63,849 nucleotides of DNA, filler included, from an uncultured Methanosarcinales archaeon (GCA_964608065.1; 5 parts of 5 records of this genome joined end to end with filler, not necessarily neighbours in it), one strand, 5' to 3'; positions 5,234 to 63,849 are shown, numbered from the whole stretch's first letter. The notes: a model not told the origin generated them from the letters alone. Program-made: numbers and translations.

Positions 5234-5242
5234 CGTAACTAC

Positions 5243-10190: not shown

Positions 10191-10475
10191 TCACTGAATT
10201 AGATGGTTTACTAAATAATCACTATATATCCCATGTACTATACCTCTTTCAACAAAACCATCATGATAACCCCCGTAGTACTTAATTGGTATTTTGTCGT
10301 TTCTATTATTCTCAACACCATCAGTTATTTGTTCAATGACTATTGTTTCTACTTCTCCAATCTTTGTTTTAACTGCTCTAACATCTCCTATTTCTAGTTC
10401 ATGAGTCTGTTTTCCAGCATTCGAAAGAGCTTTAATCAACAACGGCATTATTGATATTTGACTTTCTTTAGGCAT
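10191..10475 (-). CDS. hypothetical protein
   Basis: ORF; GAGGGGGG SD before ATG 10475. Confidence 0.55.
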   Translation of the reverse strand: MPKESQISIMPLLIKALSNAGKQTHELEIGDVRAVKTKIGEVETIVIEQITDGVENNRNDKIPIKYYGGYHDGFVERGIVHGIYSDYLVNHLIQ

Positions 10476-10606
10476 ATTTATCCCCCCTCTGATTTGCAAC
10501 GAAAAGAACTAGCATTTGCAATTCTTTCCAGAGTATTTTACATCTCTGAAGATAAAGAAATAGTTAAGGTTATATAAATATATTTTGTAATTAGAAAATA
10601 TAGTTT

Positions 10607-12953: not shown

Positions 12954-13236
12954 TTTTCATAGGATGATACTCTTTTAACAACAAATACAGTGGTTGTTCT
13001 CCAGATGGTGATTTGTCTATTAGATGATGCTCTGTTTTTCCTTTATACTCTGACTTTACATGAACACTAACTCCGCCTGTAGTATTACTAATTGCATATA
13101 CCTTTCCTATATGGGAAGGATATACTACTATTGCCGGTACACTGTTTAACTTTTCTAAGTTGTCTTCTTTCTTCACAGGAAAATCTGGATGCGTCCCATC
13201 TTCCTTAAAGCCTTTAATGATTTGGTTTATCTTCAT
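12943..13236 (-). CDS. hypothetical protein in the arg operon
   Basis: GGAGGT SD; overlaps the argG start. Confidence 0.6.
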   Translation of the reverse strand: MKINQIIKGFKEDGTHPDFPVKKEDNLEKLNSVPAIVVYPSHIGKVYAISNTTGGVSVHVKSEYKGKTEHHLIDKSPSGEQPLYLLLKEYHPMKNAP

Positions 13237-14513: not shown

Positions 14514-14613
14514 NNNNNNNNNNNNNNNNNNNNNNNNNNNNNNNNNNNNNNNNNNNNTTAATTAATTAANNNNNNNNNNNNNNNNNNNNNNNNNNNNNNN
14601 NNNNNNNNNNNNN
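14514..14613. other. artificial contig-joining linker
   Basis: N44-TTAATTAATTAA-N44 (stops in all six frames). Confidence 0.98.
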
Positions 14614-16168: not shown

Positions 16169-19100
16169 AGTTTTCATTAAAACTCCAAGTCATATTATTA
16201 TTCAAATTAACCCAATAACCATGACCTGGTTTAATTATTTTTAAAGTATTTAATGATTTATTTTTTAATGGAGAGTAAGATTTCCAACCATTGTTTTCAT
16301 AACCTAAAACATTAATTAAATCGTCACTAACATTTTTAAAAATATAGCTAACATTACTCTCATTTAAACTTGGATAACCAATTAAGGTATAGCCTTGCTC
16401 TAAATTAAATACAGGATTAACTGGTAATGTTCCATTAATAGTTAAATTATCCTCAGCTAACATTTTAATCCAAAATCCAATTGTTTCATTAATTTCAGAA
16501 TTATTATTCAATTGTAACAATTTATTATCCAAGTAAGTAAACATGTTTCCATAGTTTCCTTCTATTGAGGATAAAGTGTAAGATATTGTTTTGTTTTCTA
16601 ATACAATTGGGATGGAAATAAGGTTCCAGCCTTGGGATAAGTTTATAATAGATTTAGCAAAAACCATTATTGAATTATATGCTAAGTTATTGTCATAATT
16701 TTCTTCTATAAATGAGTTAAATGGGTAGATTAAAACATAAATGCTTTTATTACCATAAGTTGTGCTCCAATCAGTTGTAACATTTATTTTTGAATTTGAA
16801 TTAATATTAACGACTTTTTCATTTATTAAAGTTCCATAATTTCTTGGATCTTCATCATAAAATTTAATTGTAACATTTTCTAAATCAATATTTGAATTAG
16901 AATGGATAGTTGCTGTAATATTAATTATTTCTCCTGCAAAAGGATTATCTTTAGAAAAATAGATTTCTGAATTATTAATATATAAGTCAATTGGTTCATA
17001 AACTTCTGTTTCAATTGTTGATTGCCTGTAAAAATTTGTGCTATCTAAAGTTCCATTTGCAATAACATTTATTTCATAAATTCCTAGTGTATTTGTATTG
17101 TTATAGACATTAAAGTAAGAACCATCATTTGCTTGAGCATCTCCGTTAGTTCCATCATCATATAATAAAATTTCTTCTATGTTGTTATTTGGATTTTTAA
17201 TTTCTGCTTTAACAAAAGCATTTGTTATTGGATTATTAAAGTTAGTTAGATTAACGTTTAATCCAATTGATTCATTTAATCTATAATTTGATTGATTTGG
17301 TAAAATTAAAATCTTTAAATCTGTATCTAATATGACTGTAAATGTATAATCTGTTTTTATTCCATTTTCCAGAATTACTTTTGCTTTCCATAAACCTTGT
17401 TGAGGATATTCAACAATGTAGCTTTCTGTTGTTTCATTAATTGTTCTATTGTTTGGATAATAAGTAATACTATCTGTTAAATAATTTATCTCAGTTCCAT
17501 TTGGTAAAGTTAAGTTTAAGTTTAATTCAGCTGATTCATTAAACCAACTTAATAAAAATAACGCTTTATCAGTATAACTTATTGAAACATTATATGTATC
17601 ATAATCAGATTCTATTTCTTCTGTTTCATATGACGCTTCTTGGATTTGAGATACATTCTCTTCAAGGATTTCTGGTTCTGTAATCTCTGTTTCGTTTTCT
17701 AGTAATATATCTTTTACTTTTAAATAAACATCAAAACTTTCATGTAAACCTGGATGACTTACATTATATTTTGTATGATAAGGATAATCAATATTGTCTA
17801 ATTTTAAACTTTTTATTCTTACAAATCCATCATCTTCTCCAGCTAAAAAAAATGATGTTAAAAAGAAACCTTTTGTTCCTCCAATTGTTGCATGAGTTAT
17901 ATCAGGAGTTAAAATATCAGTTCCCTTAAATTTTAATGGATTACCATAATTTAACATATTAAGAAAAAAACTGTGTGGTGTCATTTGTTTTCCTGCTTTT
18001 CCAACTGCGAAATCTGCAACTGTATCAATCAATTTCAATTTTATTATAAATTTACTTAGTATTGATAAAGCATGTTTTCCATAAAATAGTTCTGAGCCAT
18101 GGTTTGGTGTTCCAAGCATGATTAGTTTTCTAACATTATTTTTATAACCGAATCTAGTGTACCATCTTGAAACAAGACCACCCATGTTATGTGTTACTAA
18201 ATCAATTTTTGCTGCGTTTGTAATAGTTTGAATTTGAGAGATTTCATCATCTAATTTTTTTGCATAATTAGTGATATCTCCATTTGCAGGAATTATCCAA
18301 GGCTCTAAATCAATTTCATAGATATTAAAACTATCATTCTTTAATCTCTCTTTTATAGTATACCATGTTCCATTTGGATCAATAACCCAATATCCATGAA
18401 CAAGTAAAACAGGACATCTTGTTGTTGAAGCATTAGAATCAATGCAGTCATCACCACCACATTTCATATCTTGGTGATTGTCATTATCATTATCAGCACA
18501 TCCAATAATTTTACAAATATTATTTTCACAATAATTTGATTCACAGTCAGAGTTTATTAGACAATGTTTTCCGTATTTACATGGAGGACAGGTTCCACCG
18601 CAGTCAATGTCTGTTTCGTCACCATTTTTTATTCCATCAATACAGTTTGGTATGGCTTGACATATTATATTTTCGGTTACATTATTGTTGTTTATATAAT
18701 AAATATTTGTATCATAAGGCATTGTATCTAAATCATAAGAAATTAAATTAGCTATCTTTGAAACATAATTTCTTTCATAGATAACTATATCATAACTTTT
18801 ATTAAAATTATCACAAGATTTGTCAATATCTCCATCTTTAGATAGTTTTAATATCAAGAAATCTCCATTTCCTTCACCATAAGAGAACGTTACTCCTCCG
18901 ACAATATATCCCCCATCTTTTGTTTGATGAATGTCATAAGCTCTATCTGTATTGCTTCCCCCATACCTACGTTGCCATTCAATGTCCCCTATAGGTGATA
19001 ATTTCAAAACTAGAAAGTCTTCGTAATATCCTTCCTTAACAACACCTACAACAATATATCCTTTATCATCTGTTTGGTGGATTGAATATGCTCTCTCAGA

Positions 19101-20033
19101 TTCACTCCCATCATATCTACGCTGCCATTCAATACTGCCATTATATGATAGTTTTAGAACCCATAAATCATCATAATCACCTCCTGCAACGATATATCCT
19201 CCTTCAATTGTCTTTTCAATAACGTTTGATTGGCCATGATGACCTTTACCATATATGTATTGCCATTCAATGTCCCCTATAGGTGATAATTTCAAAACTA
19301 GAAAGTCTTCATAATCTGTGTGCTTAATGACGCCTGCAACAATGTATCCTCCATCACTTGTCTGATAGATTGAATTTGCCCTTTCAGATCCACCCCCATC
19401 ATATCTACGCTGCCATTCAATACTGCCATTATATGATAGTTTTAGAACCCATATATCGCCAGAACCTTCGCCAGCAGCAATGTATCCGCCGTCAATCGTT
19501 GGTGAAATAGAATAAGCCCAATCTTTAGGATTAGTTCCATAATAAAAACTCCATTCGATATCTCCATTTGATTTAATTTTTAAAATCACCCAGTCCCACC
19601 AGTATGCGCCCCATACTCCTGTATCATAGATTCCAGCAACAATGTATCCGCTGTCACTTGTCTGTTTAATGGAATAAATTGTACCTGCCCTAGGATTTAT
19701 ATATTTTCGTTCCCATTCAATACTCCCGTTTGAGTAAAGTTTACATATCCAAAAATCACCTGTATTTTTTCCTGCAACAACGTAACCTCCATCATCTGTA
19801 TTTTGAATTGTCCTAGCCCAATCTTCATATATGCCTCCATAAGTTCTTGCCCATTGGGCATTGACGTTGAGAGACATAATTAAAGTAAAAATTAGGAAAA
19901 AAAATCCTATGAAAGTTGTTCTCTTTAATTTAAGATGTTTTTTTTTAATTATATCACTAACATAAGATAAAAATATAAAACACATTAGAAACAATATATT
20001 CTTTCCACTTAATATTCTAACTATCTTTTTCAA
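16152..20033 (-). CDS. large secreted multidomain protein (beta-propeller repeats, Cys module, alpha/beta-hydrolase-like domain, Ig/CARDB-like domains, C-terminal GWN modules)
   Basis: W.R.YGG/T.DGGYIVAG repeats; NGDETDIDCGG; PVLLVHG, THNMGG, LGTPNHGS; LYDDGTNGD; LSQGWNLISIP. Confidence 0.85.
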   Translation of the reverse strand: MKKIVRILSGKNILFLMCFIFLSYVSDIIKKKHLKLKRTTFIGFFFLIFTLIMSLNVNAQWARTYGGIYEDWARTIQNTDDGGYVVAGKNTGDFWICKLYSNGSIEWERKYINPRAGTIYSIKQTSDSGYIVAGIYDTGVWGAYWWDWVILKIKSNGDIEWSFYYGTNPKDWAYSISPTIDGGYIAAGEGSGDIWVLKLSYNGSIEWQRRYDGGGSERANSIYQTSDGGYIVAGVIKHTDYEDFLVLKLSPIGDIEWQYIYGKGHHGQSNVIEKTIEGGYIVAGGDYDDLWVLKLSYNGSIEWQRRYDGSESERAYSIHQTDDKGYIVVGVVKEGYYEDFLVLKLSPIGDIEWQRRYGGSNTDRAYDIHQTKDGGYIVGGVTFSYGEGNGDFLILKLSKDGDIDKSCDNFNKSYDIVIYERNYVSKIANLISYDLDTMPYDTNIYYINNNNVTENIICQAIPNCIDGIKNGDETDIDCGGTCPPCKYGKHCLINSDCESNYCENNICKIIGCADNDNDNHQDMKCGGDDCIDSNASTTRCPVLLVHGYWVIDPNGTWYTIKERLKNDSFNIYEIDLEPWIIPANGDITNYAKKLDDEISQIQTITNAAKIDLVTHNMGGLVSRWYTRFGYKNNVRKLIMLGTPNHGSELFYGKHALSILSKFIIKLKLIDTVADFAVGKAGKQMTPHSFFLNMLNYGNPLKFKGTDILTPDITHATIGGTKGFFLTSFFLAGEDDGFVRIKSLKLDNIDYPYHTKYNVSHPGLHESFDVYLKVKDILLENETEITEPEILEENVSQIQEASYETEEIESDYDTYNVSISYTDKALFLLSWFNESAELNLNLTLPNGTEINYLTDSITYYPNNRTINETTESYIVEYPQQGLWKAKVILENGIKTDYTFTVILDTDLKILILPNQSNYRLNESIGLNVNLTNFNNPITNAFVKAEIKNPNNNIEEILLYDDGTNGDAQANDGSYFNVYNNTNTLGIYEINVIANGTLDSTNFYRQSTIETEVYEPIDLYINNSEIYFSKDNPFAGEIINITATIHSNSNIDLENVTIKFYDEDPRNYGTLINEKVVNINSNSKINVTTDWSTTYGNKSIYVLIYPFNSFIEENYDNNLAYNSIMVFAKSIINLSQGWNLISIPIVLENKTISYTLSSIEGNYGNMFTYLDNKLLQLNNNSEINETIGFWIKMLAEDNLTINGTLPVNPVFNLEQGYTLIGYPSLNESNVSYIFKNVSDDLINVLGYENNGWKSYSPLKNKSLNTLKIIKPGHGYWVNLNNNMTWSFNENFKHQH
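18972..19453. repeat. exact intragenic repeats, 288-bp period
   Basis: 18972-19022 = 19260-19310; 19107-19165 = 19395-19453. Confidence 0.85.
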
Positions 20034-22669: not shown

Positions 22670-24706
22670 TCAGCTAGAATTAACATTCTTTATGGCTATT
22701 GTCCTTCCTACACTTCTAAATAAGTTATGCATGTCAGTCTGGTAATCAGGTTTGTCTTTGATCTTGCTTTTTAAGTAGTTCTTTACTTTTGCAAAATTCA
22801 GTTTTCCAAGAATTTGTGGTTTTTTTAAATGTGCTTCAAAGTATGCTTTTACTTCAACATCAAGGAATTGTTTTATTGAGGGTTTAGGTATGTTTCTTAG
22901 CTTTAGCATCCCTTCTTTCAGATAAGGTTCAATAAATTGTGACAAGGCTTCTAATCTTGTTCCTATGAATTCATAACCATTATCTAATTTCATCCTTATC
23001 TTTTCATACAATGATGATGGCTTTGGTTTTTCTATAATCTCGACACTTGCTATGTTTGATTCCTGAAGTTGTTTCCAGGAATATAATTGCCATGGTTCAT
23101 ACTTTTTATGATTTAATCTTTTTGCAATGTCTTTAGTTAAGCCTTTAAAATGTGTAAAGTTAGCACAGTTTGCAAGATAGGAACTAATTATACGCACATA
23201 TTTTATTGGTTTGGATGAAAATCTTTTAAATGCAATACTGTGTGCTTTAGGAAGGTATTTCAAGAAGGTTAATGCGTTTTCTCTTGTGAAAAGCCTAATA
23301 AGAAAATATGTTACAAATTGCAGGCTTTTCTTTAAAGAAACTCTCTTCATCATGAATGTAGGGTCATTTATTTCAAGTTCCCTCATAACTCTTTTAAAGA
23401 AAGCTTTTTCGTCATAGATTGCTTTTAAGATCTTTAAATAATCTTCTTCTGCTTCTTTAGCAGAGAAATTATAAGGGATAAAATTCATAGTTCCATCAGT
23501 ATTGTTTCCTGTGCATTCTTCCATGATCCTTTCTTCTTTTTTCAATCTCTTCCAGAGTTTTGTGTGATGTGCAGCAGTCAGAAGGCCAATCATAACTGTA
23601 GGGGCGTTTGTGGAATTGATGAAATTGATTAGTGATTCTGATGATTGTCTGGTGTCGTTGTCAAAACCATGAATCATACCTAAACTCACACCTGCTCCTG
23701 TTTCTTTTGAAATAAACCTTAAATTTTCTTTTATAGATCTCTCTGCACTTATATTCTGATATTTGCCTGTCTCTTGGAGTGATGCAATATTGTTTGTCTC
23801 AACCCCTATGAAATACCCTGTGAAGTTTGTTTTACGAAGCCAGTATCTTAGTTCTTTCATTACTGAATCATCTTCAGAAAGTCTCATAGTAAGTTCAGTA
23901 GATTTTGGAAAATGATATCCAATTTTTTTTTCTAGTTTATATATTTTTTTTAAGATTTCAATAGTTTGTTTTGGATTTCCTATAAAGTTGTCATCTACAA
24001 AAAATATTGAACCTCTGTAGCCAAGTTCATACATCTGTATTAGAGATGCCTCTGTATGTTCCCATGAAGCTATTCTTGGATTTCTTCCGAATCTTGTTGT
24101 TATATCACAAAATTCACAATCATGTGGACAGCCTCTGCTAATCTGAACAGCCATTGTAATATAGTTTTCCATGTTTATAGAAGAGAAGTCTGGCTGAAAA
24201 AATTTTTCAGGAGGTGTTATTTCTTTGCTTTTATAATATTTTCCGTATCTTTTGTCAGCAAGGTCTTTTAGAACCTTATCTATTACGAGTTCTGATTCGT
24301 TCTCTACAAGAATTTTTTTTTTTATACTTTTTCTTAAAGGAAATTTTTCATGAACAACAGTACCTCCTATAACTACAGGTATGTTTAGATCAGTAATAAT
24401 CTTAACATCTTCAATAAGTGCTTTTTCCTGTGCAATCATTCCTCCAATAAAAACATGGTCTGCATCTTTGATTAGTTTTTTTAAAGGTCTTTGATCAATG
24501 TTTCTGTCTATAAGAACCAGTTCTTCATAGTAAGGTTTTAAGTAATTGAACAGCCCCATTAACCCAAGAGGAGGGGATGCTCTTTTAGGAAGACCAAATT
24601 CTCCTTTTGGAACATAATTATTCAAAGTACGTTTAAAACTCCAAAAAGTGTTTCCATCAAAACGAGGATATATGAGAACTGCTTTTCTTGCTATTTTATT
24701 TGACAT
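22670..24706 (-). CDS. B12-binding radical SAM protein (DUF4070-like C-terminus)
   Basis: PPLGL B12-binding N-domain; SRGCPHDCEFC CxxxCxxC; FFVDDNFIGN. Confidence 0.88.
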   Translation of the reverse strand: MSNKIARKAVLIYPRFDGNTFWSFKRTLNNYVPKGEFGLPKRASPPLGLMGLFNYLKPYYEELVLIDRNIDQRPLKKLIKDADHVFIGGMIAQEKALIEDVKIITDLNIPVVIGGTVVHEKFPLRKSIKKKILVENESELVIDKVLKDLADKRYGKYYKSKEITPPEKFFQPDFSSINMENYITMAVQISRGCPHDCEFCDITTRFGRNPRIASWEHTEASLIQMYELGYRGSIFFVDDNFIGNPKQTIEILKKIYKLEKKIGYHFPKSTELTMRLSEDDSVMKELRYWLRKTNFTGYFIGVETNNIASLQETGKYQNISAERSIKENLRFISKETGAGVSLGMIHGFDNDTRQSSESLINFINSTNAPTVMIGLLTAAHHTKLWKRLKKEERIMEECTGNNTDGTMNFIPYNFSAKEAEEDYLKILKAIYDEKAFFKRVMRELEINDPTFMMKRVSLKKSLQFVTYFLIRLFTRENALTFLKYLPKAHSIAFKRFSSKPIKYVRIISSYLANCANFTHFKGLTKDIAKRLNHKKYEPWQLYSWKQLQESNIASVEIIEKPKPSSLYEKIRMKLDNGYEFIGTRLEALSQFIEPYLKEGMLKLRNIPKPSIKQFLDVEVKAYFEAHLKKPQILGKLNFAKVKNYLKSKIKDKPDYQTDMHNLFRSVGRTIAIKNVNSS

Positions 24707-24821
24707 TGGACTGATTAATAATATCTTGTATATTAATATTACCATTTACCGAAAAGTATATAAAGAAGTTTATCCTGAATATGAACACTACAAAAGACTA
24801 AAGGGGTTTTTTTTATTGAAT

Positions 24822-28941: not shown

Positions 28942-29041
28942 NNNNNNNNNNNNNNNNNNNNNNNNNNNNNNNNNNNNNNNNNNNNTTAATTAATTAANNN
29001 NNNNNNNNNNNNNNNNNNNNNNNNNNNNNNNNNNNNNNNNN
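28942..29041. other. artificial contig-joining linker
   Basis: N44-TTAATTAATTAA-N44. Confidence 0.98.
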
Positions 29042-42784: not shown

Positions 42785-42884
42785 NNNNNNNNNNNNNNNN
42801 NNNNNNNNNNNNNNNNNNNNNNNNNNNNTTAATTAATTAANNNNNNNNNNNNNNNNNNNNNNNNNNNNNNNNNNNNNNNNNNNN
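42785..42884. other. artificial contig-joining linker
   Basis: N44-TTAATTAATTAA-N44. Confidence 0.98.
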
Positions 42885-54886: not shown

Positions 54887-56194
54887 ATGGTTAATGTTTT
54901 ATTAATTGGTTCAGGAGCTCGCGAGCATGCTATTGCAGAAGCTATTATGAACAGTCCTCAAAAACCAAAATTGTTTTCTTTTGTTAAAGCAAACAATCCT
55001 GGAATAAATTCTTTATCTGAAGATGTTCAAATAGGGGATTTTGAAGATTTAGATGCAATAAAAGCATTTGCACAAGCTAATGCAATTGATATTTGTGTTG
55101 TAGGATTAGAAGGTCCTTTAGAGATTGGAGTTGTAGATGCATTAAAAGAAATAAATATCCCTTCTGTTGGTCCTGTTAAAGCTTTAGCTAAATTAGAAAC
55201 TTCAAAATCATTTACAAGATTATTGATGCAGAAGTATAAAATTAAAGGAAATCCGAAGTTCAAGGTTTTTGAAAGCATGGACGGAATCTCTGAATTTTTA
55301 GATGAGGTTGGTGAATCTGCTATTAAACCAGATGGTTTGACTGGGGGTAAAGGTGTTAGAGTTCAAGGAGATCATTATCAGACAAAAGAAGAAGCTTTGC
55401 AATATTGTGAAGAAGTTCTGAAAGATCATCCTTCTGTTATTGTTGAGGAAAAATTAGATGGAGAAGAATTTAGTTTACAATGTTTTACAGATGGTGTCAA
55501 TGTTTTGATGACACCTCCAGTGCAGGATCATAAAAGAGCTTTTGTTGATGATAAAGGTCCTAATACAGGCGGAATGGGAAGTTATTCCTGTTCAGATCAT
55601 TTACTGCCTTTTTTAAAAAAGGAAGATGTTGATACAGCTTATGAAATAACTAAGAATGTTGCAGAAGCTATTCATAAAGAGACTGGTGAATTGTATAAAG
55701 GAGTGATGTATGGAGGATTTATTGTAACAAAAGATGGAGTTAAATTAATTGAGTATAATGCCCGTCTTGGTGATCCTGAAGCAATGAATGTTTTGCCTAT
55801 TTTGAAATCTGACTTTTTAGAGATTTGTCAGGGAGTAGTTAATGGAAATTTGAATGAAGTTAAGGCTGAATTTGAGAACAAAGCTACTGTTTGTAAATAT
55901 GCTGTTCCAGAAGGATATCCTGGAAATCCTGTTAAAGGTAAGATTGAATTAGGAGATGTTTCTGAGAATGTTAGAATATATTATGCTTCTGTTGATAAAA
56001 AGAAAGATGGGTTGTATATGTTAGGTTCAAGATCAATAGCTTTTGTAGGTATACATCCAAGCATAGAAGAAGCACAAGTTGCTGCTGAGAATGCTGTTTG
56101 TTCTGTTAAAGGCCATGTTTTCCACAGAGAAGACGTTGGAACTAAAGAGTTATTGGATAAAAGAGTTAGGCATATGGAAAAGATAAGGGGTTAA
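54887..56194 (+). CDS. purD: phosphoribosylamine--glycine ligase
   Basis: GSGAREHA, GGKGV, QDHKR, GPNTGGMG, EYNARLGDPE. Confidence 0.96.
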   Translation: MVNVLLIGSGAREHAIAEAIMNSPQKPKLFSFVKANNPGINSLSEDVQIGDFEDLDAIKAFAQANAIDICVVGLEGPLEIGVVDALKEINIPSVGPVKALAKLETSKSFTRLLMQKYKIKGNPKFKVFESMDGISEFLDEVGESAIKPDGLTGGKGVRVQGDHYQTKEEALQYCEEVLKDHPSVIVEEKLDGEEFSLQCFTDGVNVLMTPPVQDHKRAFVDDKGPNTGGMGSYSCSDHLLPFLKKEDVDTAYEITKNVAEAIHKETGELYKGVMYGGFIVTKDGVKLIEYNARLGDPEAMNVLPILKSDFLEICQGVVNGNLNEVKAEFENKATVCKYAVPEGYPGNPVKGKIELGDVSENVRIYYASVDKKKDGLYMLGSRSIAFVGIHPSIEEAQVAAENAVCSVKGHVFHREDVGTKELLDKRVRHMEKIRG

Positions 56195-56202
56195 TATTTT
56201 AA

Positions 56203-56357
56203 ATGACAAAAACATATTATTTTGATACTTGCATTTGGAGAGACTTTTATGAAGACAGGTTTGGTACAAAAGGAAGACCTTTAGGGAAATATGCAAGCAA
56301 ATTATTTATGCATATAATAATAAATAAAGAAATTCTTCTGTATTCTGAGTTTATAAT
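56203..56357 (+). CDS. PIN-domain (VapC-like) protein, 3'-truncated
   Basis: YYFDTCIW N-terminal PIN motif. Confidence 0.65.
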
Positions 56358-56457
56358 NNNNNNNNNNNNNNNNNNNNNNNNNNNNNNNNNNNNNNNNNNN
56401 NTTAATTAATTAANNNNNNNNNNNNNNNNNNNNNNNNNNNNNNNNNNNNNNNNNNNN
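56358..56457. other. artificial contig-joining linker
   Basis: N44-TTAATTAATTAA-N44. Confidence 0.98.
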
Positions 56458-56629
56458 CACCGGAAGAAAAATACTAAACCAATACATACTAGTCAAAAAC
56501 GCAAAAGTTTAGAAAACGAAACATTTATATATAATTCACTACAGTTTAGGAGTAGCAAAAGGGTGTTCTTAGACCAACTAGTTTAAGAAAAAATCAAAAA
56601 AGAGGCTGATTGCTGAATGGAGCAAAAAA

Positions 56630-57559
56630 ATGAGACTAACACAGGAAGTTACAGAGGACTTGCTAAAGGAAGTAGCAGGCGAAGACACAATCAAGTTAGT
56701 CGGGCTTCTAAAAGGCAAAGATAATGTTTCTGAATTCAAACTTGCAGAAAAACTGAGGCTTACAGTCAATACTGTGAGGAACATGCTCTACAGGCTTGAA
56801 GATCATAATCTAGTTTCATCAATAAGAAAAAAAGACCAGAAAAAAGGATGGTATATTTACTACTGGACATTCAACGATTCCCAGGCAAAAATGCTAAGTA
56901 GAGCTGTGAAACAAAAGAAACTGCTTAAACTCAAAGAAGTTTTTCACATAGAAAGTCAGGAAACATTCTACGTATGTCCTGGAAAATGTACAAGATTCAA
57001 ACAAGAGAATGCTATGGACTATGAATTTAAATGTCCAGAATGTGGGACACTATTGGATCAGGAAGATAATACAGAATTCCTTGAAACAATAAAGGCTAAA
57101 GTCTTAGAACTTGAAGAAGAATTGGCAAAACCTCTGATTGAAGTAAGAAAGAAAAAAACTAAAATTTCTAAAGGCACTAAGAAAGTCAAGAGAGCTCAAC
57201 CTAAGAAAGGTGGCAGAGTCAAGAGGGCTAAGCCTAAGGTAGGCAAGCTTAAAAGAATAAAGTCAAATCTTAGACTTAAAAAACTAAAAGTTACAAAGAA
57301 AGTCAAAAGAGCTAATCCTAAGAAAGTTAAGAGAACAAAGACAGCAAGAAAAAGATTAAAATCAAAAAGACCAAAACTAAGAATAAGAGTCGTCAAAAAA
57401 GTTAAGAGAAAATCAACAAGGAAAAAAGTTATAAAGAAAAAACCTGCTAAGAAGAAAATTGTGAAAAAGAAAGTAGTTAAGAAGAAAGCAGTTAAAAAAG
57501 CAAAACCAAAAAAGAAAAGTGTTCTAAAAAAAGTAAAAAGATTTCTAAGAAGAAAATAA
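56630..57559 (+). CDS. tfe: transcription factor E alpha with Lys/Arg-rich C-terminal tail
   Basis: Winged helix (SEFKLAEKL..VRNMLYRL; GWYIYYW); Zn ribbon CP..C / CPECG. Confidence 0.9.
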   Translation: MRLTQEVTEDLLKEVAGEDTIKLVGLLKGKDNVSEFKLAEKLRLTVNTVRNMLYRLEDHNLVSSIRKKDQKKGWYIYYWTFNDSQAKMLSRAVKQKKLLKLKEVFHIESQETFYVCPGKCTRFKQENAMDYEFKCPECGTLLDQEDNTEFLETIKAKVLELEEELAKPLIEVRKKKTKISKGTKKVKRAQPKKGGRVKRAKPKVGKLKRIKSNLRLKKLKVTKKVKRANPKKVKRTKTARKRLKSKRPKLRIRVVKKVKRKSTRKKVIKKKPAKKKIVKKKVVKKKAVKKAKPKKKSVLKKVKRFLRRK

Positions 57560-57569
57560 CTTTTTGAGA

Positions 57570-59132
57570 TTATTTTAAAGTAAGATTATAAAACCCATAA
57601 GAAAAATCTTTTTCTATCAATTCAAAAAAATAATGCTCTTTTAGTTTATCTTCAAATTTATTAGACTGTTGTAATCTGTCATACCACCAAAAATCTTTAA
57701 AAAGAATGGCATTTTTTTCAGATCCAATAAGGCCAAAAGATTCAAACTTATAAGGGCTGATTGATTTTTTATGGATTGTAGCAGTTATTATTGGGGTGTT
57801 ATAACTTATAATATAAACATCTGAAGGAAGTTTGTCATCCATTGACAAAACAAATTCATATTCGTTGTTGAGCCTATGTTTTGAAAAAATAAAATTTTTA
57901 GTTGGAACTAAACTCATTAAGAAAATTAATGCAATCAAGAAAATCAATACTTTTCTATTAATCGCTATATGTCTTAGAATAAAATTTATACTATTTATTG
58001 AGATTATTATAAAAGGTAAATATAAAATTATACTATATCTAACAGTATCTCCAGGATAAAGATTTCCCATATGATAAGTATATACTAAAAAGAATAACAG
58101 AAAAAAAGAAATATAATAATAAAATAGTTTCTTATTTTTCAAATAAGCTTCTATACTTCCTAATATAAACAGAAATGAGAGGATTAAGGGATTAAACTTA
58201 TAATTTAAAAATAAAACAAAATTGGATACAAAACCATGTTTAATATAGCTTATTTTTGTCAGTAAAGAACCATCCCATCCCATAAAATGGTTTGTAAGAT
58301 AAGTCTGATAAGAATTAAGAGATGTATAGTTTATTAATTGGATTAAGGGTATGAGCATTATAAAAAAAATGAGAATAGTGATTAAATATTTTGTATTAAA
58401 TAGTTTTCTAATTTGATTACTTAATTTAATCATCAAATAAAAAGAAAAAATAAATATCAGTAAAAAATTTTCAGGCCTAATTTGCACAGTATATAATAAA
58501 ATAATTAAAAATAATAAAAATGAGGCATACTTTTTGGTTTTAACATAAATTTCTAAAGAAATTATACATAATATCATAAAAAATAAAGAGAAGATTTCTA
58601 ATGAAGCTGATCCTGAATATTTTAAATGTACTGGGATAAAACTAAATATGAAAGCTCCAATTAAAGCAAAACTTGAATTTTTAAATATTAAAAAAATTAA
58701 TAAAAAAATAAAGATTATTGAAATGCTGCCTATAATTGCATTAGTATTAAAAGCGACCTGTTCTGAATCATTGAATAAACTAAACATTAAACTTAAAAAA
58801 GTATGGTACCCTGGCGGCCATTGCACCAACTCACAAGAGTTACATACTTCTGCCGATCCTGCAGCGCACGCGCAAAACTTGTTAGAATAAAATATGTTTT
58901 GAGCTATATTTATATGCTCAAATTCATCAAAGTATACTTGGTGGGTGTGAGGTATAATGAATAATCTTGCCATCAAACCACAAAAGAAGATTATAAAGAG
59001 AATAATCCATGTTCTTCGATCTATACTTTTAAACATTTTTAAAAAAATTTTAAAATTAAAAATAATAAGTATTAGTATAATTAACAGAATAAACTTCATT
59101 AATAATGGATACAATTGGATTAATGGCAACAT
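57570..59132 (-). CDS. GT-C fold membrane glycosyltransferase (ArnT/PMT-like)
   Basis: Many TM helices; YFDE loop, WPPGY, RPEN. Confidence 0.75.
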   Translation of the reverse strand: MLPLIQLYPLLMKFILLIILILIIFNFKIFLKMFKSIDRRTWIILFIIFFCGLMARLFIIPHTHQVYFDEFEHINIAQNIFYSNKFCACAAGSAEVCNSCELVQWPPGYHTFLSLMFSLFNDSEQVAFNTNAIIGSISIIFIFLLIFLIFKNSSFALIGAFIFSFIPVHLKYSGSASLEIFSLFFMILCIISLEIYVKTKKYASFLLFLIILLYTVQIRPENFLLIFIFSFYLMIKLSNQIRKLFNTKYLITILIFFIMLIPLIQLINYTSLNSYQTYLTNHFMGWDGSLLTKISYIKHGFVSNFVLFLNYKFNPLILSFLFILGSIEAYLKNKKLFYYYISFFLLFFLVYTYHMGNLYPGDTVRYSIILYLPFIIISINSINFILRHIAINRKVLIFLIALIFLMSLVPTKNFIFSKHRLNNEYEFVLSMDDKLPSDVYIISYNTPIITATIHKKSISPYKFESFGLIGSEKNAILFKDFWWYDRLQQSNKFEDKLKEHYFFELIEKDFSYGFYNLTLK

Positions 59133-59244
59133 TATATCAACTTAAATATGGCCTATTTTTATATTTATCTGAATTTTTATAGAAACAATAAGTATCTAAA
59201 ATCCAAAAATATTAAAAAACCTAAAGAAATCTCTATGTTTTATT

Positions 59245-60141
59245 ATGGTTATTCAGAAACTGGATATAAAGACAGGATTCATATGCAACAACAATTGTAA
59301 GTTCTGTGTACAAGCTGACAATAAATGCAGTGGTAATAGGAGCTTTGAAGAAATAAAATCAGACTTGGAAGAATTTAGAGATAAATGCTCAGGAGTAGTA
59401 TTCACAGGAGGGGAAGTAACAATTAGAAAAGACTTCTTTGATCTTGTAAGACTAGCAAAAGATCTTCGTTACGAATCCATCCAAATTCAAACTAATGGAA
59501 GGATGTTTTCATCTATGGAATTCTGCAAAAAAACAGTCAAAGCCGGAGCAACAGAACTCTGCCCTGCGATACATGGTTGCTGCGCTGAACAGCATGATTC
59601 GTTAACAAGAGCTCCAGGAAGTTTTGACCAAACTGTAAAAGGGATACAAAACGCAAAATCTATAGGATTAATGGTCATCACAAATACCGTCGTGGTAAAA
59701 CAGAACTACAAAGATCTGTCTAAGATAGCAAGGCTGCTTATACAGCTCGAGGTAGATCAGGCACAATTTGCATTTGTACATCCAATGGGCAACGCATGGA
59801 AAAACTTTGATGAAGTAGTCCCATCAATATCAGAAGCAGCACCCTACATATGCAAAGGGATTAGAATAGGTGCAGAATCAGGATTAAAAATGATGGCAGA
59901 AGCGATGCCTTACTGTCTGATGCAAGGCTATGAAGAATTCATCGCTGAAAAAGTGATACCTGACACAGCAATCCGGGGAGGAAAACATCAAAACACAGAT
60001 AATTTTACAGAACAGAGGAAGTCCCATGGAAAAGTTAAGTTCCTTCAATGCAGGGAATGCAAATGGGAATCTGTATGTGAAGGCCCTTGGAGGGAGTACC
60101 CTGAAAAAAGAGGAAACAGCGAATTCAAACCTGTAAAATGA
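59245..60141 (+). CDS. radical SAM protein, HxsC-like
   Basis: CNNNCKFC, FTGGE, QTNGR; C-terminal PYC and CRECKWESVCEG. Confidence 0.8.
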   Translation: MVIQKLDIKTGFICNNNCKFCVQADNKCSGNRSFEEIKSDLEEFRDKCSGVVFTGGEVTIRKDFFDLVRLAKDLRYESIQIQTNGRMFSSMEFCKKTVKAGATELCPAIHGCCAEQHDSLTRAPGSFDQTVKGIQNAKSIGLMVITNTVVVKQNYKDLSKIARLLIQLEVDQAQFAFVHPMGNAWKNFDEVVPSISEAAPYICKGIRIGAESGLKMMAEAMPYCLMQGYEEFIAEKVIPDTAIRGGKHQNTDNFTEQRKSHGKVKFLQCRECKWESVCEGPWREYPEKRGNSEFKPVK

Positions 60142-60213
60142 GAAATAGAACAAGGCTTAAATAAACTTCGCTATCGATATATTTAAATAAATTATATCTC
60201 CTTTTTTATAATT

Positions 60214-60828
60214 ATGAAAAACATATTATACATTGCCTTAATTTTAATAATTCTTACTTTTGGATGTGCTCAAAAACAAGTTAGCATAGAAAAAACTACA
60301 GATACAGAATTAAATGATTCTCTGAACTGTGAAAATCCTCAAAATGAAGCTGAAATAAAATCCTGTGGGCTTATAGGCACTGATTCTAAACTACAACAAT
60401 GTAAACAAAGGTCCAGCATGGACTTCACATTTTTCTGCATAGCACTAATAACTGAGGATGCAATAATATGTGAAGATATAGAAGATGTTCTCTATAAACA
60501 TATATGTAAAGCTATAATAAAACATGACCCATTGATATGCGAACAGCTAACCCTAGAACAGGAAATAGATATGTGCTTTACAGATATAGGTATGAATCTT
60601 GATGATAGAACTACTTGTAACAAAATAAAAGACAAAAACAAAAAAGAAGTATGTTTAGGTGTGGTTGATAGAGACATGGAAAAATGCTTCGAAGACGATT
60701 CTTATAAATCTGTATGTATCTTAAACATAATTGATTTCTCTGATGGAAATATTTCTTGCGAATCATTAGCTGATGAACAAAGAAGCCAAGAATGTTTGAC
60801 AATACTTCAAAAAATCGGTGAGGAATGA
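60214..60828 (+). CDS. Cys-rich repeat lipoprotein
   Basis: LTFGC; repeated C..I........C units. Confidence 0.7.
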   Translation: MKNILYIALILIILTFGCAQKQVSIEKTTDTELNDSLNCENPQNEAEIKSCGLIGTDSKLQQCKQRSSMDFTFFCIALITEDAIICEDIEDVLYKHICKAIIKHDPLICEQLTLEQEIDMCFTDIGMNLDDRTTCNKIKDKNKKEVCLGVVDRDMEKCFEDDSYKSVCILNIIDFSDGNISCESLADEQRSQECLTILQKIGEE

Positions 60829-60831
60829 CAT

Positions 60832-61920
60832 ATGATATTGTGGTTTTTACCTGTAATTTTAGCTTTAGGAATTTTAACATCATATACTGATATAAAGCAT
60901 GGGAAAGTAAAAAACAAGCACCTATTTTTTGCTTTGCTCTATGGGATCATAGCATACACAATTATAATTTTCATTAACTTAGGATACGTAAGGATAGATT
61001 ATTTTACTGAACTCACAATAAACTGCACTTTTGCACTGGTAGTCGGATTCATAATATGGTATGTTGGCCTTTGGACAGCAGGTGACGCAAAATTATTCTT
61101 TACCTATTCATTTTTAATCCCTTTATCAACTTATAGATATGGTTACGTGCCATATTTTTCTTCCACAAATATTCTTATTAACACTTTGATACCAATGTTT
61201 CTGTTCTTACTTGCTGTATTATTATTTAAGACCAGCCTAAGACAAAAGGCATATTTTTTCAAAAACGCATTTAAACCAAAACGTGTACTCCAATTAGTAA
61301 TTTTTCTATTCGCATTTGGCTGGATAATAACCTTATTATTTTCTTTATTTAAAATCCCTCCAGACTATTTCCTTATGATATTAATACTATTTATTTTTAT
61401 GACCCTCTTGGAAAAAGTAGTTTCAATTAATATATTTAAGATTGTTATAGTAATATCAATATTGAGATTTGCGCTGGATAGATCTATCTATTCTATTGAA
61501 TTCCTATACTGGTTTTTATTCATGGTTTTAATGTTTGTGATATTAAGATTCTTTGTTATTTCGATGGGATTTCACATCTTCACAAAAGAAGTAGATATTG
61601 CACTCTTACAGAAAGGCATGATACCTGCAGAGGGAGTATACAAAGAGAAAGACAGATATAAAAAACAGGCTTTTAGGTTCTATACATTACTAAACTATCT
61701 CTCAGAAAAAACAAAAAAGAGAGATTACCTTTTTGAATCAACTTCAGAAGGCTTAACAGAAAAAGATGTTAAAAAACTGAAAAATTTGGAGAAAAAACTT
61801 GGTTTTGAACACCTCAGAGTACAGCAAACAATCCCATTTGCACCTTACATGTTCTTAGGGGTTTTACTTACAATAATATTCCAAGGAAATGCTTTTTTAG
61901 CCTTGGTATTCTTGTTCTGA
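60832..61920 (+). CDS. A24 prepilin/preflagellin peptidase-like protein
   Basis: SYTDIKHGKVKN, WTAGDAKL, C-terminal IPFAPY. Confidence 0.85.
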   Translation: MILWFLPVILALGILTSYTDIKHGKVKNKHLFFALLYGIIAYTIIIFINLGYVRIDYFTELTINCTFALVVGFIIWYVGLWTAGDAKLFFTYSFLIPLSTYRYGYVPYFSSTNILINTLIPMFLFLLAVLLFKTSLRQKAYFFKNAFKPKRVLQLVIFLFAFGWIITLLFSLFKIPPDYFLMILILFIFMTLLEKVVSINIFKIVIVISILRFALDRSIYSIEFLYWFLFMVLMFVILRFFVISMGFHIFTKEVDIALLQKGMIPAEGVYKEKDRYKKQAFRFYTLLNYLSEKTKKRDYLFESTSEGLTEKDVKKLKNLEKKLGFEHLRVQQTIPFAPYMFLGVLLTIIFQGNAFLALVFLF

Positions 61921-61981
61921 TAGACAAATATACTAAACCGTATAAAAATTTATAAAGCTTTAGAAGTTCTAATTTTTTAAA

Positions 61982-62470
61982 ATGGATGAAGAAATTTCAA
62001 TGCAAGGAAATTTGGAAATAAACCAGAAAGAAGGATGTGTTATAATTTCTGTAAACCCAAAAATTTATCCTTTAGATGTAGTCTTGTCATCAGCATATAT
62101 TTTTACAGATAATTATTATGTTCTTGTAGATGGTGACCCTAACGAAGAGATTATGGTAGAACTAAGACCAAAGGATAGTGATAAAGACTTACAGAAACTT
62201 GGTAGGGATTTCAATAATGAGCTGATAAATTATGCCAATTATGCTGTGCAATCAATAAGAAATGAACAATTAAGAGGAGCAATACTTAATAGAGTGTTAT
62301 TAACAAATAATGTTACACCAAATGATTCTGTTAAATGCAATACTAATGATTATTTAGAGAAGGAAGCAAAACCCTGGCAGTTTGAAGACCCTGAAAAAAT
62401 AGCAGTTCCCTGGGATGAAAAATATGGAGAAAGTAAAGATAAACAAAATAAAGAATCAGGTCTTAGTTAA
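61982..62470 (+). CDS. hxsD: His-Xaa-Ser system protein HxsD-like
   Basis: IYPLDVVLSSAY.F.D..Y, DFNNELINY; next to HxsB. Confidence 0.75.
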   Translation: MDEEISMQGNLEINQKEGCVIISVNPKIYPLDVVLSSAYIFTDNYYVLVDGDPNEEIMVELRPKDSDKDLQKLGRDFNNELINYANYAVQSIRNEQLRGAILNRVLLTNNVTPNDSVKCNTNDYLEKEAKPWQFEDPEKIAVPWDEKYGESKDKQNKESGLS

Positions 62471-62648
62471 TTTTAATGAACAGTTCTATAAAAAGGGATT
62501 CATTGACCAAGCTATTCTTGACTTTAATGAAGTTTGCGAGGTTGATCAAACAGAAGATGGTTTATTATTAAGGCCTAAGGGAGAAGTGAACTTGGATATA
62601 TTAGGCTACGAATTTTACAATTATGTTTTAGGTCTTATGAAGAACTAA
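62415..62648 (+). CDS. second small HxsD-like protein
   Basis: FY....IDQAILDF and EFYNYVLGL resemble the HxsD pattern. Confidence 0.6.
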   Translation: MKNMEKVKINKIKNQVLVNFNEQFYKKGFIDQAILDFNEVCEVDQTEDGLLLRPKGEVNLDILGYEFYNYVLGLMKN

Positions 62649-62655
62649 CTATAAA

Positions 62656-63849
62656 ATGGCTGTAAGCTACTTCGGAAAGGAAGGGAAGTATGTCCCAAAT
62701 CATATAAGGATAAAAAAAATTAAAGAAGGATTTCTAATCACCAATGATTATGGTTCATGGGCGTACCTGGATGATGAAGAGTATAAACAATTAAGAAAGA
62801 ATGAAGTAAAAGAGCCCCTGCGTAGCCTTTTGAAAGAAAAAGGGATACTTCTTTCAGAGGATAATATGGAGAATGTGATTGAAGATTATCGGAAAAAATG
62901 CCAATACCTGTTTCAAGGAACATCTTTGCATATAGTTGTTCCTACACTTAGATGTAATATGAAGTGTGTCTATTGCCACGCTAATGCAAAGCCTCAAAAT
63001 GCTGAAAGCTATGATATGGATAAGCAAACAGCAAAGAAAACAGTTGATTTCATATTTCAAAGCCCATCAAATGCGATTACAATAGAATTTCAGGGTGGAG
63101 ACAGCTTATTAAATTTTGATATCGTGAAATACGTAGTCAATTACGCAAAAGGACTGAATAAAACAGCTAAGAAAGATCTCAGGTTTAGCCTAGTTAGTAA
63201 TCTGATATCGCTTAATGATGAGATGGCTGATTTTTTAATGAAAGAAAGAATAGGGTTATGTACATCAATAGACGGCTGTAAAATTGTACATGATAAAAAT
63301 AGGCAAGGGCATGATGAAACTGCCAATTGGATAAGAAAAATAAAAGAAAAAAACTATCGCATCAACGCACTCTTGTTAATCACAAAACATTCTCTGCCAT
63401 ATCATAAGGAGATTGTTAATGAGTATGTCAACTTAGGATTAGATACGATATGGGTTAAATCTCTAAATAAGCTCGGCTATGCAAAAGACAACTGGAAAGA
63501 GATCGGCTTGACTGCTGAAGAATTCTTATCATTCTGGAAAAAATCCCTCGATTATATAGTGGAAATTAATAAGAATACGCTCCTCAAAGAAAATTCTACA
63601 GTAATTATCCTGAGGAAGATTTTGAAAAAAAAAGGTTCTAACTTCGCAGATTTACAAAGCCCTTGCGGTGCGTGCATAGCTCAATTAGCATATGATTACA
63701 ATGGTGATATATATACTTGTGATGAGGGTAGGCAGTTTGACATATTTAAGGTCGGTACTGTAGATGATAAATATACAGAAATACTTTCATCTAACGAAAC
63801 AAAAAGTATAGTCGAGACATCTATAAATGACAACCCTGTTTGTGAAACC
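62656..63849 (+). CDS. hxsB: His-Xaa-Ser system radical SAM maturase HxsB-like (runs off window end)
   Basis: Hand-translated, absent from ORF track: GTSLHIVVPTLRCNMKCVYCH, FQSPS..ITIEFQGG, DLQSPCGA...QLAY.YNGDIYTCDEGR. Confidence 0.88.
   Translation, partial: MAVSYFGKEGKYVPNHIRIKKIKEGFLITNDYGSWAYLDDEEYKQLRKNEVKEPLRSLLKEKGILLSEDNMENVIEDYRKKCQYLFQGTSLHIVVPTLRCNMKCVYCHANAKPQNAESYDMDKQTAKKTVDFIFQSPSNAITIEFQGGDSLLNFDIVKYVVNYAKGLNKTAKKDLRFSLVSNLISLNDEMADFLMKERIGLCTSIDGCKIVHDKNRQGHDETANWIRKIKEKNYRINALLLITKHSLPYHKEIVNEYVNLGLDTIWVKSLNKLGYAKDNWKEIGLTAEEFLSFWKKSLDYIVEINKNTLLKENSTVIILRKILKKKGSNFADLQSPCGACIAQLAYDYNGDIYTCDEGRQFDIFKVGTVDDKYTEILSSNETKSIVETSINDNPVCET

Follow-up and report, generated by a model that had tools for sequence, protein, structure and literature searches.

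The Hxs system, comprising the His-Xaa-Ser (HxS) repeat protein HxsA (TIGR03979) together with HxsB (TIGR03978), HxsC (TIGR03977), and HxsD (TIGR03976), was reportedly described in silico by Haft and Basu in 2011. We analyzed a locus of this type at positions 57570-63849 of a 63,849-nucleotide stretch of DNA (the window) from an uncultured Methanosarcinales archaeon (GCA_964608065.1). We think the odds slightly better than even (about 0.55) that this region is the 5' part of an Hxs maturation system of the HxsA3/HxsA4 type in a DPANN (Nanoarchaeota/Woesearchaeota-like) archaeon, with a dedicated leader protease and a His-rich surface substrate.

In Escherichia coli, the HXS system is an antiphage defense that blocks entry of phage DNA, according to the available text of PMC13128918 (2026). 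There, HxsA is exported and cleaved N-terminally, and the cleavage needs HxsB, HxsC, and HxsD; HxsC binds HxsD; a change of +8 Da is found on the SHRSS sequence of HxsA; and the effector requires a peptidoglycan-binding domain. The same text leaves open which protease cuts HxsA and how export is coupled to modification by the radical S-adenosylmethionine (SAM) enzymes. Of the systems in its survey, 99.7% were from Pseudomonadota, and 99.6% of the proteobacterial ones had the gene order D-B-C-A. A search of the whole text of that paper, supplements excluded, gave no occurrence of archaea, peptidase, prepilin, A24, or glycosyltransferase. The accessible part of PMC9062424 cites HxsB only as an annotated cluster.

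An earlier note on this DNA, made from the sequence alone, had described Hxs systems as bacterial and of unknown chemistry. That description is out of date: NCBI already names archaeal HxsB proteins, and the +8 Da change and the antiphage defense are both in the available text of PMC13128918. The Hxs system is known, archaeal HxsB is named, and NCBIfam already has curated models of variant precursors. As far as our literature searches reach, there appears to be no description of the protease that is conserved here, of the Cys-rich partner, or of the link to a GT-C glycosyltransferase. Those searches, which lay outside the subscription journals, found no paper linking radical SAM enzymes, a prepilin peptidase, and ribosomally synthesized and post-translationally modified peptides (RiPPs), and no occurrence of the names HxsA3, HxsA4, or HxsC4.

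Core Hxs genes of the archaeal locus

Four genes of the window belong to the Hxs core (hxsD, hxsD-rel, hxsB, and one similar to hxsC), and three are accessory genes that recur with this branch of Hxs elsewhere. The proteins of the region were scored by the curated cutoffs of NCBIfam and the gathering scores of Pfam. One gene, for a GT-C glycosyltransferase, is on the minus strand and is followed by six closely spaced genes on the plus strand that encode, in order, an HxsC-like protein, a Cys-rich protein, an A24-like protease, HxsD, an HxsD-related protein (HxsD_rel), and HxsB, the last of which is open at the end of the window (Table 1). All seven, each of them named in the earlier note, were found where it had placed them by a listing of open reading frames (ORFs), NCBIfam, and Pfam. 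The gene set is not one of chance neighbors, since hxsB has these families around it in other genomes as well. The promoters of the GT-C gene and hxsC are presumably both in the spacer between these divergent genes, and a scan of 56000-63849 with Rfam found no family.

Table 1. Features of the Hxs region (positions are those of the window).
Feature	Position	Strand	Evidence
GT-C fold membrane glycosyltransferase (PMT_2/ArnT-like), 520 amino acids	57570-59132	-	Pfam PF13231, 37.5 bits (gathering score 26.1)
AT-rich intergenic region of 112 bp between the divergent GT-C and hxsC genes	59133-59244		Sequence read directly
HxsC-like radical SAM enzyme, 298 amino acids	59245-60141	+	Matches to NCBIfam HxsC4 and HxsC; Pfam Radical_SAM, 79.2 bits
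Cys-rich secreted putative lipoprotein, 204 amino acids, 15 Cys	60214-60828	+	Signal-peptide-like N terminus, with a hydrophobic segment that ends in Gly-Cys
Probable A24-family (GxGD-type) intramembrane aspartyl protease with Arc_PepC-like domain, 362 amino acids	60832-61920	+	Pfam matches; motif
HxsD-like small protein, 162 amino acids	61982-62470	+	TIGR03976, 43.6 bits (cutoff 50)
HxsD-related small protein (HxsD_rel), ORF of 77 amino acids	62415-62648	+	NF038315, 44.7 bits (cutoff 41)
HxsB radical SAM/SPASM maturase, first 398 of about 460 amino acids	62656-63849, 3' end open	+	TIGR03978, 383.1 bits

We compared the region with 80 related loci (given below as L numbers), the best 80 of 588 confirmed stretches from 599 candidates, with one genome per species. 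In a tree of HxsB made with FastTree, 22 of these loci and the window form an archaeal clade with a support of 100.

HxsB scored above the cutoff for its family (370 bits) despite the loss of about 60 C-terminal residues at the end of the window. The CxxxCxxC motif is at C100/C104/C107 (62953-62976). Residues 147-150 are GGDS instead of the usual GGEP, as had been read from the sequence before. Among 83 HxsB ORFs, the residues that follow QGG are EP in 77, D with A, T, or C in three, and DS in only one, that of the window; GGDA is present in two database relatives (P0001 and P0077). We found 823 relatives of HxsB. The closest are 55-70% identical to the protein of the window, and those that are full-length and 70% identical have 456-468 amino acids. 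The close relatives that carry a taxon name are from metagenome-assembled genomes of Woesearchaeota, Nanoarchaeota, and Aenigmarchaeota, and are already called HxsB by NCBI. The HxsB proteins of L052 (labeled Aminicenantes) and of L003, L009, L011, L025, and L065 (labeled Methanosarcinales) fall inside the DPANN archaeal clade with a support of 100; the labels of these bins may be wrong, or the genes may have been transferred.

The HxsC-like enzyme is, judged by its scores, a homolog of HxsC that is outside the family by curated cutoffs. Its best NCBIfam model was HxsC4 (NF038332; 158.8 bits, cutoff 500), and it had 117.5 bits on HxsC itself (TIGR03977; cutoff 267.9). The CxxxCxxC motif is at C14/C18/C21, and orthologs that are 40-50% identical are present in both archaeal and bacterial Hxs loci. 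The HxsC-like proteins that we scanned from L005, L011, L032, and L050 had 62-161 bits, none reaching the HxsC4 cutoff. In two loci from bacteria of the Candidate Phyla Radiation (CPR), seven to eight HxsC-like radical SAM paralogs are in a row after hxsB (L032:11389-18543 and L040:7906-15203), which suggests many successive modifications of a single HxS protein.

There are two HxsD-type genes upstream of hxsB. The first encodes a protein somewhat below the cutoff for HxsD; its orthologs in L005, L007, L032, and L050 are above it (50.2-67.3 bits), and HxsD orthologs are upstream of hxsB in most loci. The second encodes HxsD_rel, which is above its cutoff. Because this ORF overlaps hxsD by 56 nucleotides, an internal Met is probably the true start. 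Paired HxsD-type genes are also present in L001, L002, L004-L010, L012-L014, L024, L049, L050, L052, and L054. Scoring with the Hxs hidden Markov models, which the earlier note had proposed as a check, placed HxsB and HxsD_rel above their cutoffs, HxsD short of its own, and the HxsC-like protein far below. The NCBIfam and Pfam scores for the core genes bear out the view that the locus is an archaeal variant of the Hxs system.

The locus is similar to proteobacterial HXS in its core enzymes and different from it in order and content. Shared features are HxsB above the curated cutoff, an HxsD-like protein, a homolog of HxsC, and, in the relatives, HxS-repeat proteins that adjoin hxsB. The substrate has an N-terminal export signal, and E. 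coli HxsA is cleaved N-terminally (PMC13128918, available text). In contrast to the D-B-C-A order of the proteobacterial systems and of an Aeromonas plasmid, the order in the window is C-like, Cys-rich, A24, D, D-rel, B. Unlike canonical HXS, the window has a second HxsD-type gene, an HxsC-like protein far below the HxsC cutoff, and three extra conserved genes (A24-like, Cys-rich, and GT-C), and the precursors of its relatives are small proteins (76-190 amino acids) with a long conserved leader, without a peptidoglycan-binding domain and without a match to TIGR03979.

The locus also resembles a set of variant families in NCBIfam (HxsA2, NF038296; HxsA3, NF038309; HxsA4, NF038313; HxsC4, NF038332; and HxsD_rel, NF038315), in that HxsD_rel passes and HxsC4 is the best model for the HxsC-like protein. 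The precursors of the relatives align with the HxsA3 and HxsA4 models from their first positions, indicating that the curated models include the same leader. It differs from this set in that most archaeal precursors (23-52 bits) and the HxsC-like protein are below the cutoffs, and in that the protease, the Cys-rich protein, and the GT-C enzyme have no NCBIfam model, either in the window or in L005, L006, L007, L011, L032, and L050.

The precursor and the A24-like protease

The substrate of the window's enzymes is most likely a small His-rich HxS-repeat protein encoded just past the end of the window. A density scan of the whole window in six frames found no run of H-x-S repeats, and a profile of the precursor leader of the relatives found nothing in all stop-to-stop frames of the window (best E value 0.78), in agreement with the earlier note. 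The precursor gene is probably out of sight because hxsB is cut by the end of the window, with about 60 codons missing, and the usual site of the precursor gene is beyond it. Among the 80 loci, an HxS-dense ORF (at least four H-x-S in 40 residues) was present in 50 and a precursor with a conserved leader in 48. In the archaeal clade, the precursor gene directly follows hxsB in 12 of the 22 loci and is elsewhere in the fetched DNA in three (L004, L007, and L024); it was not found in the other seven, which include L001 and also L065, where the contig stops just after hxsB.

The precursors of the relatives are of the HxsA3/HxsA4 type. The archaeal ones have 76-229 amino acids. For the precursors of the relatives, matches to HxsA3 (NF038309) or HxsA4 (NF038313) begin at model position 1-2; the precursors of L011 (65.4 bits) and L032 (96.1 bits) are above the cutoff, and the others have 23-52 bits (cutoffs 65 or 55). 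None matched canonical HxsA (TIGR03979) at E ≤ 0.01, in contrast to the HxsA of the Aeromonas plasmid, which had 227.3 bits. This canonical HxsA has an ordinary short signal peptide and no long leader (-0.9 bits on the leader profile), and its annotated locus has no A24 gene. The earlier note had set one pattern against its own reading, a canonical HxsA downstream combined with a linkage of A24 and GT-C genes that is not conserved; the relatives do not have that pattern, their precursors being of the HxsA3/HxsA4 type and the A24 linkage being kept. In one locus from Woesearchaeota, the HxS-repeat protein (L006:6850-7419) ends in a Peptidase_S74 intramolecular-chaperone domain (E value 3.6e-12), as in trimeric phage tail fibers. 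Pfam Collagen is matched by 8 of 26 precursors because H-G-S repeats are Gly-X-Y triplets.

The leader of these precursors is about 45-50 residues long, with about 30 residues before a small-residue junction. It starts with a basic stretch resembling P-K-I-K-K-K, followed by the near-invariant motif F-L-x-S-E-E-G-K-I-S/T-K, in which the Glu and Gly are kept in 26 of 26 precursors. About eight polar residues then lead to the junction, [K/R]-x-[G/A], and to a hydrophobic segment of about 14-18 residues. This segment is usually followed by small-x-small and a conserved His, and after these come an H-x-N-S-hydrophobic motif and the array of H-x-S. The acidic-Gly motif is more likely a handle for the core enzymes, judging from its distribution, because it is present with or without a protease gene nearby. 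It presumably recalls the leader of Flp/Tad prepilins, an analogy at the level of the motif; homology to these pilins was rejected, as Pfam Flp_Fap matched 0 of the 26 precursors at E ≤ 5.

The protease is most likely related to the A24 peptidases. MEROPS family A24 contains PilD, TadV/CpaA, FlaK, PibD, and EppA. On Pfam Peptidase_A24 (PF01478) the protein of the window had 25.4 bits (gathering score 26.5), and on Arc_PepC (PF06819) 25.0 bits (gathering score 23.4); 22 of 25 members of its family match the A24 model at E ≤ 0.01, the best with an E value of 1.4e-11. The predicted catalytic residues are D20 (codon 60889-60891) and D85 (codon 61084-61086), the latter in A-G-D-A-K-L (A-G-D-x-K-L in the family), and all 25 sequences compared, as well as an alignment of 35, keep D20, N28, W81, G84, D85, and K87 without exception. 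An AlphaFold2 model of the protein had a predicted local distance difference test (pLDDT) score of 86.8. With Foldseek, FlaK (3s0x) gave the top two folds in the PDB, at a weak level (E values 0.79-1.2, probability 0.85, template modeling score 0.51 on the target, 141 columns). Searches of the PDB by sequence gave no match with the protein itself and five unrelated matches with the family profile (E values 0.19-2.3), FlaK not being matched by sequence. NCBI calls the identical protein hypothetical, and some relatives are named CpaA or FlaK by the Joint Genome Institute (JGI).

The likeness to A24 peptidases thus lies in a polytopic membrane topology, in one Asp of the first helix and another in A-G-D-x-K-L, and in FlaK as the best fold; the precursor proposed as substrate has, like A24 substrates, a charged N-terminal region, a Gly/Ala junction, and a hydrophobic segment. 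Unlike genes for A24 peptidases, this one is inside a radical SAM maturation cluster and not beside genes for a pilin or archaellin and assembly proteins. Pfam detected no N-methyltransferase domain, and the proposed substrate is an HxS-repeat protein with about 30 residues of leader before the junction rather than a pilin.

The protease is, on the evidence of its genomic distribution, a conserved part of this branch of Hxs. A profile built from the protein of the window found an A24-like gene in 29 of the 80 loci. Of these, 18 are in the archaeal clade of 22 loci and 11 are bacterial, with the labels Omnitrophota, Paceibacterota, Saccharibacteria, Elusimicrobiota, Planctomycetia, and Bacillota. 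The A24 linkage, which the earlier note had proposed to look for across genomes, is therefore conserved. In the HxsB tree, the A24 gene was present in 30 of the 49 rows of one half, which holds archaea, CPR bacteria, Elusimicrobiota, Omnitrophota, Bacillota, and a bin labeled Planctomycetia; within it, the archaeal clade accounted for 19 of 23 rows, including the window. It was present in none of the 32 rows of the other half (Myxococcota, Pseudomonadota, and Bdellovibrionota). As a label on the tree, the gene required 12 changes, compared with a mean of 24.4 for shuffled labels, and 0 of 500 shuffles gave a number as low. In 13 archaeal loci, the A24 gene is directly upstream of hxsD-hxsD_rel-hxsB, the same as in the window. 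In L004, a gene of the exosortase family (PF09721; L004:16510-17973) adjoins the A24-like gene.

Sequence at the junction and a model of the complex are consistent with the protease acting on the leader. In the 25 precursors of loci with an A24 gene, the junction residue was Gly in 22 and Ala in 3. In the 24 precursors of loci without it, the residue was Ser in 7, all of them in the half of the tree that is free of the protease. Canonical HxsA, which does not have the long leader, does not have a linked protease either. We modeled the protease of L014 with residues 1-60 of its own precursor, in three runs and with three controls. The pair scored 0.73 and the best control 0.00. Of 157 solved complexes, 116 scored 0.73 or more, as did 2 of 215 mismatched pairs; these counts are rough because we used our own alignments. 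The runs shared at least 96% of contacts, with a pLDDT of at least 70 for the partner. The interface comprised D22, N30, and residues 84-91 (W86, G89, and D90), that is, both catalytic Asp residues (D22 and D90) and the W-x-x-G-D segment, and the best-defined contacts were with precursor residues 25-36, which span the junction. The model supports binding of the leader at the active site of the protease. A class III type leader cut by an A24 peptidase, as the earlier note had it, is plausible from the linkage and the complex model as far as the peptidase is concerned; the leader is not a textbook class III signal peptide.

The Cys-rich protein and the glycosyltransferase

The Cys-rich protein belongs to a family that is also found in other Hxs loci. 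It has no Pfam or NCBIfam family. A profile found members in 10 other loci, between hxsB and hxsA in several bacterial loci (L017, L019, L041, and L050) and after hxsC in L024. An exhaustive profile search gave 650 cluster representatives at E ≤ 0.001 and 138 at E ≤ 1e-10; a word-indexed search for relatives returned only the protein itself. The AlphaFold2 model was an all-helical repeat (pLDDT 76.3) with no significant match in the PDB by Foldseek, where the best E value was 0.58 and only generic helical repeats appeared. Look-alikes in the ESM Atlas were unnamed archaeal clusters (scores 0.89-0.92), at a level of recognition below what is reliable.

The GT-C enzyme is linked to hxs genes in only 8 of the 80 loci, where homologs are present. 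Like PMT_2/ArnT enzymes, it is a multi-span protein with an Asp-Glu in the first loop (D69-E70), of which E70 is invariant and D69 is kept in 8 of 9 homologs. Unlike in those enzymes, there is a link to hxs genes in these 8 loci, and its only NCBIfam match was a weak one to LA_3751/3752 glycosyltransferases (25.8 bits). The homolog touches Hxs genes in L006, where it directly follows hxsA; in L050, where hxsC and a GT9 gene are on one side of it and the protease gene on the other; and in L007, where it is directly before a second hxsA and after genes similar to arnB, arnC, and arnD and sugar genes similar to tviB and tviC. Genes of the ArnB, ArnC, and ArnD types make a polyprenyl-phosphate amino-sugar donor. 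The stretch of L007 from hxsB to the second hxsA (L007:11408-20699), which also contains genes for a second large membrane protein and a further radical SAM protein, is by its gene content a lipid-linked amino-sugar module within an Hxs locus.

In five other archaeal loci, hxsA has further sugar genes beside it: those for an epimerase and for a radical SAM-GT2 fusion in L010, for a deacetylase in L012, for a GT28-like protein in L014, for DegT and a GT28-like protein in L015, and for DegT in L016. In L010, the radical SAM-GT2 fusion is directly after hxsA (5180-7009 and 8151-13184 include it and a protein of 1678 amino acids with three radical SAM domains). Based on these neighborhoods, glycosylation of an exported Ser-rich protein is a reasonable guess. 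The earlier note had proposed a glycosylated substrate; the recurrence of the GT-C homolog agrees with this, and the glycosylation itself is only suggested by the position of genes.

Proposed role, alternatives, and genome context

We propose that the locus makes and exports a modified His-rich surface protein. In the cytoplasm, HxsB and the HxsC-like protein would work with both HxsD-type proteins to recognize the acidic-Gly motif and to modify His and Ser in the repeats, a step proposed by analogy to the +8 Da that SHRSS acquires in E. coli. The hydrophobic segment of the precursor would enter the membrane, and the A24-like protease would cut the leader at the cytoplasmic face in the manner of a prepilin peptidase; the G/A junction that precedes this segment is the most likely site. 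The His-rich part would end up outside the cell. There the Cys-rich protein may bind it, and it may be O-glycosylated by the GT-C enzyme with a polyprenyl-phosphate sugar donor. The role would most likely be an envelope barrier against viruses, by analogy with proteobacterial HXS, and this is the least secure step.

The position of the protease beside the maturases, its intact catalytic residues, and the docking of the leader in the model make it a testable candidate for the processing step of HXS. We also raise, tentatively and at less than even odds, the broader proposal that a distinct clade of GxGD (A24) proteases was recruited as the dedicated leader peptidase of HxS surface proteins matured by radical SAM enzymes, in a module (the protease, the Cys-rich helical-repeat partner, and a GT-C enzyme that uses a lipid-linked sugar) common to DPANN archaea, CPR, and several other bacterial phyla. 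If true, leader removal as in RiPPs and processing of class III signal peptides would be merged in one step, the kind of protease missing from the account of E. coli HXS would be identified, and the envelope antiviral barrier would extend to archaea; if the defense role carries over, such a barrier would act at the envelope of ultra-small archaea. DPANN archaea and CPR bacteria, among which the system is common, are outside the coverage of the published survey (PMC13128918, as far as its text is available). Our results also point to two further unstudied partners, the Cys-rich secreted family and the GT-C enzyme.

Several observations weigh against this reading. The substrate gene is not within the window, and L001, the closest fetched relative (55% identical HxsB, sister to the window with a support of 99), has no leader-type precursor in 9.8 kb after hxsB. 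Membership of the window's protease in A24 is marginal (25.4 versus 26.5 bits, with no PDB match by sequence and a weak match by Foldseek). There was no A24-like gene in the fetched DNA of 24 of the 48 leader-bearing loci, including L019, L021, L026, L028, L034, and L038, which have full 10-kb flanks; therefore the protease is either not obligatory or encoded further away. The contrast between Ser and Gly/Ala at the junction tracks one deep split in the tree and so represents one or two independent events, not 25. In the complex model, a hydrophobic helix may dock readily on any membrane protein, and the controls are possibly not membrane proteins. The leader does not have the classical class III pattern: after the invariant Gly of E-E-G come Lys and ten polar residues. 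Its hydrophobic segment is short, and small-x-small resembles a signal peptidase I site, which would make a cut by the A24 protease unnecessary for export. The sugar genes next to hxsA may reflect the general frequency of glycosyl genes in DPANN genomes. For the antiviral role, the peptidoglycan-binding domain required of the E. coli effector (PMC13128918, available text) is missing from the archaeal precursors. The flanks of the cluster (transcription factor E, purine and thiamine genes, and tRNA synthetases) do not form a defense island, and a PADLOC scan of seven window proteins and two precursors gave only a generic radical SAM similarity to pVip, with a 2023 library that has no Hxs model.

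The A24-like protease and the GT-C enzyme could instead be envelope housekeeping proteins, a prepilin or pre-archaellin peptidase and a surface glycosyltransferase that are mere neighbors of the hxs genes, with HxsA exported by Sec and cut by signal peptidase I. The small-x-small sequence followed by His after the hydrophobic segment in most precursors fits this, as do the half of leader-bearing loci that have no A24-like gene in the fetched DNA and the opposite orientation of the GT-C gene in the window; DPANN genomes are compact, and unrelated genes are often adjacent in them. We consider it unlikely in view of the order A24-hxsD-hxsD_rel-hxsB, which is identical in 13 archaeal loci even though their HxsB is only 44-51% identical to that of the window, and of the presence of the protease inside hxs clusters of six bacterial phylum-level labels with differing gene orders. 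The absence of the A24 family from all 32 loci whose precursors are without the leader or have Ser at the junction, the lack of an NCBI family name for the protease, and the complex model, which passes its controls, also argue against mere adjacency. If the protease does belong to the system, its substrate might still be a pilin: the earlier note had inferred a RiPP-pilus hybrid, in which a modified and glycosylated pilin-like protein keeps its hydrophobic N terminus after the A24 cut and assembles into a surface fiber. The basic N-terminal region, G/A junction, and hydrophobic segment of the leader do resemble class III signal peptides, an A24-family protease is conserved in the system, several members of its family are called CpaA or FlaK by JGI, and the Peptidase_S74 fusion in L006 (a domain typical of trimeric fibers) and the Collagen matches in 8 of 26 precursors could speak for a fiber. 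The assembly genes that this would call for did not appear. In 67 proteins from 6 loci, NCBIfam found no assembly ATPase, no platform protein, and nothing else belonging to a pilus or an archaellum, and Pfam found none of these among 65 neighboring ORFs of 11 archaeal loci or among 41 ORFs of the window. No pilin family was matched by any of the 26 precursors at E ≤ 5, the hydrophobic segment has only about 14-18 residues and is followed by a site like that of signal peptidase, and many archaeal precursors, with H-S-S repeats, are without the Gly needed for a collagen-like helix. Based on these results, we rate the pilus hybrid as very improbable.

A different question is what the modified protein does, and it may not be antiviral at all: a modified His-rich extracellular peptide could bind or take up metal, or mediate contact of an episymbiont with its host, with the Cys-rich protein as partner or receptor. 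Consistent with this, the mature region is dominated by His and starts with a conserved His after the putative signal cleavage site, the archaeal precursors have no peptidoglycan-binding domain of the kind required in E. coli, the flanking genes are housekeeping rather than defense genes, and a conserved secreted Cys-rich helical-repeat partner is present. In opposition to it, antiphage defense is the sole experimental function for any Hxs system, going by the available text of PMC13128918, and there was no recurring metal transporter or regulator in the loci examined (the same 67 proteins of 6 loci and 65 ORFs of 11). We think such a role doubtful, and prefer the reading as an HxsA3/HxsA4-type system with a dedicated leader protease and a His-rich surface substrate.

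The gene upstream of the cluster encodes the alpha subunit of transcription factor E (NCBIfam), and the remaining window has archaeal housekeeping genes, which mark the host as an archaeon. Among them are genes for a histone, for a DNA polymerase of family B, for tRNA synthetases, and for the synthesis of purines and thiamine. Next to the histone gene is a gene for a radical SAM protein of 691 amino acids with DUF4070 (22673-24745, minus strand; B12-radical SAM-like), which by its position is unrelated to the Hxs cluster. Two ORFs, of 470 amino acids (14756-16165, plus strand) and 1293 amino acids (16155-20033, minus strand), matched no Pfam family at E ≤ 1e-6. There are four pairs of 44-N runs about 14 kb apart (14514-14613, 28942-29041, 42785-42884, and 56358-56457), apparently masked stretches, and ORFs are interrupted there, for example at 56203-56409.

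Between 29097 and 42840, on the plus strand, is a string of very large secreted proteins. These include a NosD/beta-helix protein of 1159 amino acids, an ORF of 600 amino acids without a family, a PKD-domain protein, a subtilase, a DUF333 protein, and a protein of 1256 amino acids that joins papain C1, an M23 peptidase, VWA, and a MopE metal-binding motif. The run looks like a surface or host-interaction arsenal of the kind typical for episymbiotic archaea.

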